A stretch of 8,473 nt of DNA from a virus (IMGVR_UViG_2663762857_000030:1-8473), one strand, 5' to 3'. Positions 6,743 through 7,555 are shown, counted from the first letter of the stretch. Notes: generated by a model not told the origin, from the sequence alone. Numbers and translations: made by a program.

Positions 6743-6830
6743 CGGGTCCTTTCCGGCATATGGACCCGTTACGGGGCGGCGACCTTGCGGGTTTTCGCTA
6801 TTTATGACGTTTTTCCGTGAAGGTGACACC
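6743..6830 (+). other. Lambda-type cohesive-end site (cos A): cosQ-like, cosN, proximal cosB
   Basis: cosN 12-mer GGGCGGCGACCT at 6774-6785. Upstream ACGGGTCCTTTCCGG...CCCGTTACG resembles the lambda right end (cosQ region). Downstream TGCGGGTTTTCGCTATTTATGACGTTTTTCCG closely resembles the first ~45 bp of the lambda left end. Confidence 0.8.
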
Positions 6831-6874
6831 ACCACCACTTGATTAATATTTAACCATGAAGTTAAGGTAACATT

Positions 6875-7309
6875 ATGATTGATAAAGCTTGTTTTGTAAG
6901 TCAGCAGGAAATAGCTGAACATTTCAAGGTTAACAGAACCACTATTCGCGCATGGACCAAACAGGGGATGCCGTATCTTAATGCGGATCGCGGAAAGTCT
7001 GGCGGTTATCACATCGGGCATACATTGCTTTGGTCTTCAGGTAAAAGCCGTCTTGAGACCATCAGATATCACGTAGAAACCAGTGCGCTGGAAAAAATTA
7101 TGTTTGCCAGGCTGCTTTCATCTGAGCGTGACGAGTACTCCAGTGAAGAAACAGAACATCGATTTGATGAAGGTTTGCAGATTTACGGCTATTCACCGGA
7201 AGATGTGAGCAAGGCACGAAATAAAATGGCTGGCTTTCTGGCTGGGTGGCGTCATGCCGTAAGCGTTCGCCGTGCCAGCATGGAGCAATCAGCCGATACA
7301 GAACAGTAA
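6875..7309 (+). CDS. Small-terminase-like protein (144 aa): lambda Nu1-type N-terminal DNA-binding domain, unrelated C-terminus
   Basis: N-terminal ~50 aa align by eye with lambda Nu1 (VSQQEIAEHF--NRTTIRAWTKQGMPYL-ADRGKSG versus VNKKQLADIFGASIRTIQNWQEQGMPVLRGGGKGN). The C-terminal half is not recognisably Nu1-like. The gene sits ~90 bp downstream of cos A, as Nu1 sits downstream of lambda cos. Confidence 0.7.
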   Translation: MIDKACFVSQQEIAEHFKVNRTTIRAWTKQGMPYLNADRGKSGGYHIGHTLLWSSGKSRLETIRYHVETSALEKIMFARLLSSERDEYSSEETEHRFDEGLQIYGYSPEDVSKARNKMAGFLAGWRHAVSVRRASMEQSADTEQ

Positions 7310-7377
7310 AGCCGATAACTTGTTAATCACTCGCAGCAATGCATGTGATTTGTGCACACTTTCGGTTAACTGGTTCG

Positions 7378-7474
7378 ATGTCCGGTTTTAGTGTCTGTTT
7401 TTTGCGCATGTCCGGTTCATGGAAAGCATGTTTTTATATTTTTCATATGGTTAACTTGCAGAGAAACCGGACAT
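7378..7474. repeat. Three copies of the 10-mer ATGTCCGGTT (two direct, one inverted): candidate cosB R-type terminase-binding elements for cos B
   Basis: ATGTCCGGTT at 7378-7387 and 7408-7417; its reverse complement AACCGGACAT at 7465-7474. Spacings are 30 bp and 57 bp. The orientation pattern and distance from cosN resemble lambda cosB R sites. Confidence 0.5.
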
Positions 7475-7555
7475 GGATCCCGAAAAATTTTCATAAATAG
7501 TGAAAACGCGCGAGGTCGCCGCCCCGTAACGGGCCATAATTCCAGGAAGGACCCG
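7470..7555 (-). other. Second lambda-type cos site (cos B), inverted relative to cos A
   Basis: AGGTCGCCGCCC at 7513-7524 is the reverse complement of the cosN 12-mer. Read on the minus strand the order is cosQ-like (7555-7525), cosN, then CGCGCGTTTTCACTATTTATGAAAATTTTTCGG, which matches the lambda left end even more closely than cos A. Confidence 0.75.

Follow-up and report, generated by a model that had tools for sequence, protein, structure and literature searches.

Why should a satellite element carry two phage packaging sites that point in opposite directions? The question is raised by a stretch of 8,473 nucleotides of viral DNA (IMGVR_UViG_2663762857_000030:1-8473; the whole stretch is called the window below), in which two lambda-type cos sites, cos1 on the plus strand and cos2 on the minus strand, flank the gene rppA between positions 6743 and 7555. 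This segment (cos1, rppA and the inverted cos2) is the packaging module of a phage-inducible chromosomal island (PICI) of the EcCICFT073 type, named after the island of Escherichia coli CFT073. The two cos sites are not a new feature, as they have already been published (Fillol-Salom 2018, PMC6092414; Fillol-Salom 2019, PMC6739421), and the Fillol-Salom authors left open the reason for having two. Taking all its parts together, we regard it as probable that the segment is this module, that RppA redirects a helper's terminase to cos1, that cos2 provides a second route independent of Rpp and that the inversion keeps the two routes separate. The comparative result for cos2 is a modest extension of the published system; its new part is that the cosB of cos2 appears to be a copy from a different family of lambda-like prophages.

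Both sites were aligned in register with lambda, the reference being the two ends of NC_001416 joined. The window contains exactly two copies of the cosN 12-mer GGGCGGCGACCT, one on each strand, and no more when one mismatch is allowed, against a chance expectation of 0.01; none of 200 shuffles gave two matches. The two copies lie 728 bp apart (6785 to 7513). In cos1, cos2 and lambda alike, the cosQ heptamer GGGTCCT begins 30 nt upstream of cosN bp 1, and from bp 13 to bp 45 the sites agree with lambda at 28/33 (cos1) and 30/33 (cos2) positions. Together they form a 78-nt inverted repeat, whose arms (6743-6820 and 7478-7555) are 81% complementary with 657 nt between them. Past bp 45 the two sites share 31 of 105 positions, which is the level of chance, and the same holds for each cosB compared with lambda (24/105 for cos1, 28/105 for cos2).

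A preliminary description of this DNA had proposed two complete, oppositely oriented lambda-type cos sites around a Nu1-like gene, each with a cosQ-like segment on one side and about 45 bp resembling the lambda left end on the other, and with differing distal cosB regions. The alignment to lambda that it suggested, agreeing in cosQ, cosN and bp 13-45 and at chance in cosB, bears out this picture, including the positions and spacing of the cosN copies, and the arrangement matches published experiments (PMC6092414, PMC6739421). Some details need amendment. The three ATGTCCGGTT repeats ascribed to cos2 are present as three exact copies, at 7378-7387 (+), 7408-7417 (+) and 7465-7474 (-), but two are direct and one is inverted. 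The statement that cos1 runs straight into the Nu1-like gene does not hold, as 89 bp, containing ACACCACCACCAC at 6826-6838, separate cosN from the ATG at 6875. That gene does encode a mimic of the DNA-binding domain of the small terminase (TerS), but it is rppA and not a small terminase. Neither site has a small-terminase gene directly downstream of its cosB: rppA follows cos1, and cos2 enters the 3' end of rppA in antisense.

It is the cosB of cos2 that bears most directly on the question. It carries three copies of CATGTCCGGTT, the first at bp 50-60 (lambda R3 lies at bp 50-65; PMC9026076), within what reads as a match to a natural phage cosB. The identity is 97% over 135 bp to five phages of the PhiR12 series, which are cultured phages recorded with E. 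coli K-12 and E. coli C as hosts. Over bp 46-150, cos2 agrees at 101/105 positions with PhiR12_1 and two prophages and at 94/105 and 88/105 with two more, against the 28/105 given above for lambda. The spacers between the three R-like elements vary across these diverged prophages but the elements themselves do not, and the homology of cos2 to phage cosB stops right after the last element. In PhiR12_1 the matching stretch immediately precedes the Nu1, A, W and portal genes, at a distance of about 45 bp, and is therefore the phage's own cos. Among 5,426 E. coli genomes, the cos2 cosB is present in 251, only 64 of which have a full island-length match. In all four of the inspected genomes with partial matches, this cosB stands about 45 bp upstream of a small-terminase gene whose product has 169 aa (WP_000235436.1 or a relative), with terL, the head-tail joining protein gene (W) and the portal gene downstream and a lysis cassette upstream. 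Judged by its sequence, the cosB of cos2 is a complete three-element phage cosB, about 96% identical to its counterparts in PhiR12_1 and in a lambdoid prophage family.

The cosB of cos1 is of another kind. It has no repeated R elements, and a single R3-PICI site has been proposed in it; its match to phages is confined to the common segment at bp 13-52, with no match in cosB. In register it shares 24-32 of 105 positions with every cosB compared. In E. coli it was found in 94 genomes, at full length every time, and its core ACACCACCACCAC is identical in 21 of the 22 Rpp islands surveyed, with one substitution in the remaining locus (L046 in our numbering). The cos1 cosB (ACACCACCACCAC, bp 53-65) is restricted to Rpp islands. 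Murialdo and Feiss, who proposed the single R3-PICI site at bp 48-65, treated only cos1 (PMC9026076), and we found no mention of the cos2 of a PICI in papers beyond the two original ones.

The small terminase that accompanies the cos2-like prophage cosB, here called class I, differs from that of lambda in its N-terminal part. The WP_000235436-type TerS aligns with lambda Nu1 only at residues 73-164 (46% identity), and the Pfam family Phage_Nu1 covers only its residues 49-150. Among 50,697 phage records, its N-terminal part was found in the PhiR12 phages only; lambda, 434, N15, HK629 and Gifsy-1 match only the C-terminal part. Because the alignment is confined to this part, class I TerS combines the terminase-docking half of Nu1 with a different DNA-binding domain, and a different DNA-binding domain on a common C-terminal half is the pattern behind the specificities that lambda, 21 and N15 show in packaging (PMC4669245). 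The R core of class I, CATGTCCGG, is similar, though not identical, to the 21-type CATGTCGG of CFT073 phage 4, which is printed in Fig. S5 of the 2018 paper (PMC6092414). A reading of cos2 as a phage 21-type site was rejected, as the N-terminal domain of the associated TerS is unrelated.

Is this phage-like cosB an accident of one island? Rpp loci were gathered from homologues, their contigs and IMG/VR, and the count given here is that of the 22 E. coli-type RppA/RppB loci with enough downstream sequence. Both cos sites occupy the same positions and orientations in 22 of 22: cos1 lies on the rpp strand with its cosN about 101 bp before the start codon, and the cosN of the inverted cos2 lies 216-239 bp beyond the rpp stop codon. 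The cosQ of cos2 is kept at its exact spacing in every island surveyed. The cosB of cos2 is in these loci of class I (CATGTCCGGTT, as in the window) or class II (GGTTGTTGT, in forward-inverted-forward order like lambda R3, R2 and R1), and a third class (TTCCGGTTTT) occurs in the RppB islands L009 and L010, so that there are at least three classes. The class II cosB has counterparts, 80-83% identical, in other lambdoid prophages, where it likewise stands just ahead of terS and the TerS has yet another N-terminal domain. Both class I and class II occur among islands whose RppA proteins are 97-99% identical. The exchange is sharply bounded: the window and L037, which has a class II cos2 and an RppA 97% identical to that of the window, agree near-perfectly up to the rppA stop at 7309 and again from about 7500, with only 7310-7500 replaced. 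A scan of species-representative genomes with the Rpp alignment found no relatives.

These comparisons bear on the idea that cos2 is a neutral recombination scar without selected function, left where the shared cosQ-cosN segment acts as a hotspot for recombination with prophages. Its 96% identity to a prophage cosB implies recent exchange; the deletion of cos2 does not reduce transfer mediated by lambda or phi80 but increases it (PMC6092414); and there are Rpp islands, in Klebsiella, that lack cos2. A scar would not, however, be expected to keep its inverted position in 22 of 22 loci across the RppA and RppB lineages and three cassette classes, nor to consist, in both classes with a known prophage counterpart (I and II), of a complete cosB ending right after the last R element. 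A site that is costly with lambda should also disappear if it were useless, and in locus L043 the same cosN variant at both sites points to continuing constraint or gene conversion. We therefore consider a scar quite improbable.

The cosN sequences of related loci vary in ways of their own. In L043 (IMG/VR), with cos1 at 1400 and cos2 at 2170, both cosN copies are GGGCGTCGACCT, a pattern suggestive of gene conversion between the two inverted copies or of joint adaptation to one helper; the variant of L029 and L032 (GGGCGACGACCT) is confined to cos2. The RppB-type islands (L009/L010/L011, L019, L020 and L044-L046) have another cosN family, for example GGGGGT-nnnnnn-ACGCGC, a type also present in phage SerU-LTIIb and prophage L023. 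Within one and the same RppB island, cos1 and cos2 have different bases at the centre of cosN; ends cut at the two sites would therefore not be complementary, and mixed ends could not anneal. The E. coli prophages L023 and L024 have a common class II cosB and nearly identical TerS proteins but different cosN sequences (the GGGGGTCGGTGGACGCGC type and lambda GGGCGGCGACCT, respectively), which means that lambdoid prophages reassort cosN independently of cosB. In two Salmonella Rpp loci (L016 at 654 and L017 at 1969) the right half of cosN is unlike lambda (GGGCGACGCGCT or GGGCGGAGCGCT), the cos site lies upstream of an extra open reading frame (ORF) of about 141 aa that precedes rpp, and no inverted second site was seen nearby.

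What each site does must be read together with RppA. The RppA of the window matches the RppC structure 6hlk over residues 2-125 (E=5e-31), is identical to published RppA at residues 1-50 and has the published length of 144 aa; Pfam Phage_Nu1 gave no match in it. The translation of 6875-7309 has, at the positions given in PMC6739421, the residues for DNA recognition (R21 and T22), for pairing with TerS (L51) and for self-pairing (F121). Among 13 Rpp homologues R21, T22 and F121 do not vary, and conservation of L51 is at least 90%. Murialdo and Feiss describe the protein as lacking the part that binds TerL (PMC9026076). The RppA of CFT073, which differs in one residue, was shown to bind TerS, block phage packaging and promote packaging from cos1 (PMC6739421).

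Published experiments established that the island has no terminase of its own (PMC6092414, PMC6739421). RppA forms heterodimers with the small terminase of the helper (TerS of lambda or phi80), which blocks recognition of the phage cosB, and the hybrid is redirected to the cosB of cos1; the proof came from a phi80 chimera and a cosB swap, in which the cos1 cosB region conferred RppA-dependent packaging (PMC6739421). Once the RppA-TerS hybrid has recognized this cosB, helper TerL cuts cosN and packages island concatemers into full-size heads. Cloned singly, cos1 and cos2 each give plasmid transfer mediated by lambda and phi80 (PMC6092414), and RppA increases the transfer of cos1 plasmids only (PMC6739421). 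For the island itself, transfer mediated by these phages is lowered by deletion of cos1, raised by deletion of cos2 and abolished by deletion of both (PMC6092414). Both sites can be cut and used for packaging; with lambda and phi80, cos1 is the one required.

We propose that cos2 would serve for direct, Rpp-independent packaging by helpers whose TerS RppA may be unable to pair with, which would give the island two routes into capsids. With a non-matching helper such as lambda, occasional cutting at cos2 would break a run initiated at cos1 after 0.74 kb. Such a cost with lambda fits the rise in transfer on deletion of cos2, and a compensating benefit elsewhere is therefore implied. The comparisons suggest that cos2 may allow Rpp-independent packaging by a second helper family. 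The preliminary description had offered, among other guesses, two helpers with different small-terminase specificities, and it is this guess that fits the comparative data best.

Another of its guesses was that one copy is a decoy. Put more fully, cos2 might act mainly by soaking up, in the many copies of the replicating island, the terminase of class I helpers that Rpp cannot block, packaging from it being a by-product. The island replicates itself with a primase and SSB, its cos2 reproduces a phage cos faithfully, and interference of the Rpp type works through depriving the phage of TerS, all of which would suit a decoy. Yet cosQ is unnecessary for a decoy, and its exact spacing is nonetheless held in every island; in the published deletion data, moreover, cos2 alone supports transfer (PMC6092414). 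Terminase acting on a complete cosQ-cosN-cosB will also package, which makes a decoy hard to separate from a packaging site. On balance, a predominantly decoy role seems rather unlikely.

The inversion itself finds a place in the proposal that cos2 is a second packaging route. From the orientation of the sites, cos1 is predicted to package rightwards and cos2 leftwards; that packaging may proceed in either direction, as supposed at the outset, would be a direct consequence of the inverted geometry. As cosQ acts in a single direction, packaging begun at one site would be unable to stop at the other. The inverted orientation would thereby keep the routes apart and avoid molecules 0.7 kb too long or too short. 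Inverted sites would also permit, in principle, bidirectional packaging of the neighbouring chromosome from an integrated island, similar to the lateral transduction that SaPIs (Staphylococcus aureus pathogenicity islands) with pac sites do perform (PMC12829572). Packaging from cos must, however, end at a cosQ-cosN of the same orientation downstream, and the chromosome lacks one; according to Feiss and colleagues such initiations yield stalled, tailless particles (PMC4669245), and cos phages are stated not to engage in lateral transduction (PMC12829572). This explanation was rejected on the last ground, and we accord it next to no probability.

If cos2 is matched to a second helper family, some trace of such helpers might be sought in the genomes that carry the island. 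Further class I-like places occur in 16 of 60 listed island-bearing genomes and in 187 of 5362 others (odds ratio 10, p=3e-10). Some of what is counted here, however, is 35-bp matches to the cosN-proximal segment that the sites have in common, the extra places may be second islands and the strains are interrelated. With these confounding factors, the excess is no more than suggestive of a link between island and matching prophage.

Several observations weigh against cos2 as a helper-matched site. In 44 of the same 60 listed genomes with a class I cos2 island there is no second class I site, so that co-residence is not the rule. The Klebsiella islands mentioned above have cos1 only. For class III (L009) no prophage counterpart was found in the collections searched: the best match is 80% over 70 bp to phage SerU-LTIIb, and the E. 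coli genome matches inspected were other islands. The cos2 spacer from the R3-like to the R2-like element contains no IHF consensus with up to one mismatch, matches across the window being at chance, and no paper on the PhiR12 phages was found. Finally, if RppA does pair with class I TerS, cos1 would suffice and cos2 would need another explanation.

With these points set against it, we give roughly even chances to the specific proposal that cos2 is an exchangeable, helper-matching slot beside a universal Rpp-dependent cos1, carrying the native cosB of a TerS family outside Rpp's reach, with the inversion separating the two systems, and that the class I and class II cassettes point to lambda-like packaging specificities beyond those of lambda, 21 and N15. 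The near-constant cos1 and the swapped cos2 cassettes predict which helper uses which site, and the counterpart of cos2 in isolated phages turns the question left by the original authors into a specific experiment. If the proposal is true, one satellite joins two strategies of piracy, terminase redirection and a copied helper site, which widens its range of helpers; it would also flag lambdoid packaging specificities so far uncharacterised. The features discussed are listed in Table 1.

Table 1. Features of the packaging module and its right-hand boundary (positions in the window; bp numbers count from cosN bp 1)
Feature	Position	Strand	Remarks
cosQ of cos1 (GGGTCCT)	6744..6750	+	Lambda spacing; in Fig. 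S1A cos1 (PMC6739421)
cosN of cos1 (GGGCGGCGACCT)	6774..6785	+	Exact match; packaging would run rightwards toward rppA
cosN-proximal segment of cos1, bp 13-45	6786..6818	+	28/33 identical to lambda
PICI-specific cosB of cos1, bp 48-65	6821..6838	+	R3-PICI site as proposed by Murialdo and Feiss; core ACACCACCACCAC at 6826-6838, bp 53-65
rppA (c1503), 144 aa	6875..7309	+	Winged-helix mimic of the TerS DNA-binding domain, without the C-terminal half of Nu1
Swappable cosB cassette of cos2	7310..7500	-	Sole stretch differing from L037
R1-like element AACCGGACAT (packaging strand), bp 138-147	7378..7387	-	Homology to phage cosB ends here
R2-like element AACCGGACATG (packaging strand), bp 108-118	7407..7417	-	Inverted relative to R3-like element; inverted repeat I9
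R3-like element CATGTCCGGTT (packaging strand), bp 50-60	7465..7475	-	At lambda R3 position; inverted repeat I9
cosN-proximal segment of cos2, bp 13-45	7480..7512	-	30/33 identical to lambda
cosN of cos2 (GGGCGGCGACCT)	7513..7524	-	Exact match; packaging would run leftwards, through rppA antisense
cosQ of cos2 (GGGTCCT)	7548..7554	-	30 nt upstream of cosN bp 1
Conserved 93-aa ORF	7589..7870	+	Immediately outside cos2; conserved right-hand module boundary; no Pfam family

The surroundings of the module agree with an island of this type. The order of genes is that of CFT073 (primase, SSB, a PerC-family regulator, a capsid E homologue, a decoration D homologue, a 137-aa ORF, rppA and the 93-aa ORF). 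In the CFT073 island an integrase is also present ahead of these genes; neither an integrase nor alpA was identified within the left-hand 1.4 kb of the window. The E homologue (4884-5939; Pfam E=7e-50) and the D homologue (5951-6286; E=1e-17) are clear relatives of the lambda major capsid and decoration proteins; the island is packaged inside helper capsids of normal size, and the role of the capsid homologue is described in the literature as unknown (PMC6893505). The 137-aa ORF is closely followed, 2 bp short of the cosQ of cos1, by a GC-rich hairpin (GCCGGA-GAAA-TCCGGC) with seven T after it (6719-6741), which looks like an intrinsic terminator and is absent from the list given by a consensus scan. 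That scan for promoters and terminators, over 6600-7950, gave counts no higher than in shuffles, and no promoter was assigned. Near the right end of the island, just past the 93-aa ORF, GTGAC-containing 16-mers (AGYGACAnnCCGTGAC) occur three times at 7876-7921, with spacings of 20 and 10 bp, and could be integrase arm-type or other protein-binding sites. The right flank (8000-8473) is unlike that of CFT073, where phoQ adjoins the island; here a minus-strand ORF with a membrane-protein-like N-terminus begins at 8473. The flank possibly reflects a different integration site or different accessory DNA.

Compared with EcCICFT073 itself, the window contains an element of the same type. The region is 99.3% identical to positions 1387484-1388384 of E. 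coli CFT073, and 83 complete E. coli genomes contain the entire 901 bp. Its cos2 is 100% identical to that of CFT073, and its sites are the sequences printed in Fig. S1A of PMC6739421, as cos1 on the plus strand and, for cos2, as the reverse complement of the minus-strand site. The element is a relative and not CFT073 itself: substitutions are numerous upstream of 6715 as well as downstream of 7646, and RppA has a single residue change (T62 in place of A). At bp 13 of cos1 (6786), beside the bottom-strand nick, the window has T in place of the C of CFT073; in the 94 E. coli genomes that match the cos1 cosB, no alignment extended over this base. The CG pairs around the nick sites are highly conserved (Feiss et al.), and the T, private to the window, might weaken cutting at cos1. 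The match of the cos2 cosB to other prophages is absent from PMC6092414 and PMC6739421, where both cosB regions were called "completely divergent" from phage.

With lambda, the sites share an identical cosN 12-mer, the cosQ heptamer and its spacing, and 28-30 of the 33 positions at bp 13-45. Like lambda, cos2 has a set of three R-like elements, of which the first lies at bp 50-60 and the second is inverted, and in cos1 the gene of a winged-helix protein follows cosB. The third R-like element of cos2 is, however, oriented as the second, whereas lambda R1 is oriented as R3, and no IHF consensus was found in the spacer between R3 and R2 of cos2. The gene after cos1 begins at bp 102 rather than bp 191 and encodes RppA, which lacks the half that binds TerL.

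The relation to the specificity classes of lambda-like phages (lambda/434/phi80, 21 and N15/Monarch) is one of common design. In these classes cosQ and cosN are common, specificity depends on how the recognition helix of TerS pairs with the R elements of cosB, and a complex three-element cosB is frequent (PMC4669245). Class I TerS differs in having no detectable N-terminal similarity to Nu1, N15 gp1 or Gifsy-1 TerS. Among satellites, SaPIbov4, SaPIbov5 and P4 follow the same strategy as cos2, in that the satellite carries the cos of its helper so that helper terminase packages the satellite. Here a second strategy stands alongside it, the redirection by Rpp to a private cosB, and the two sites form an inverted pair around rpp.

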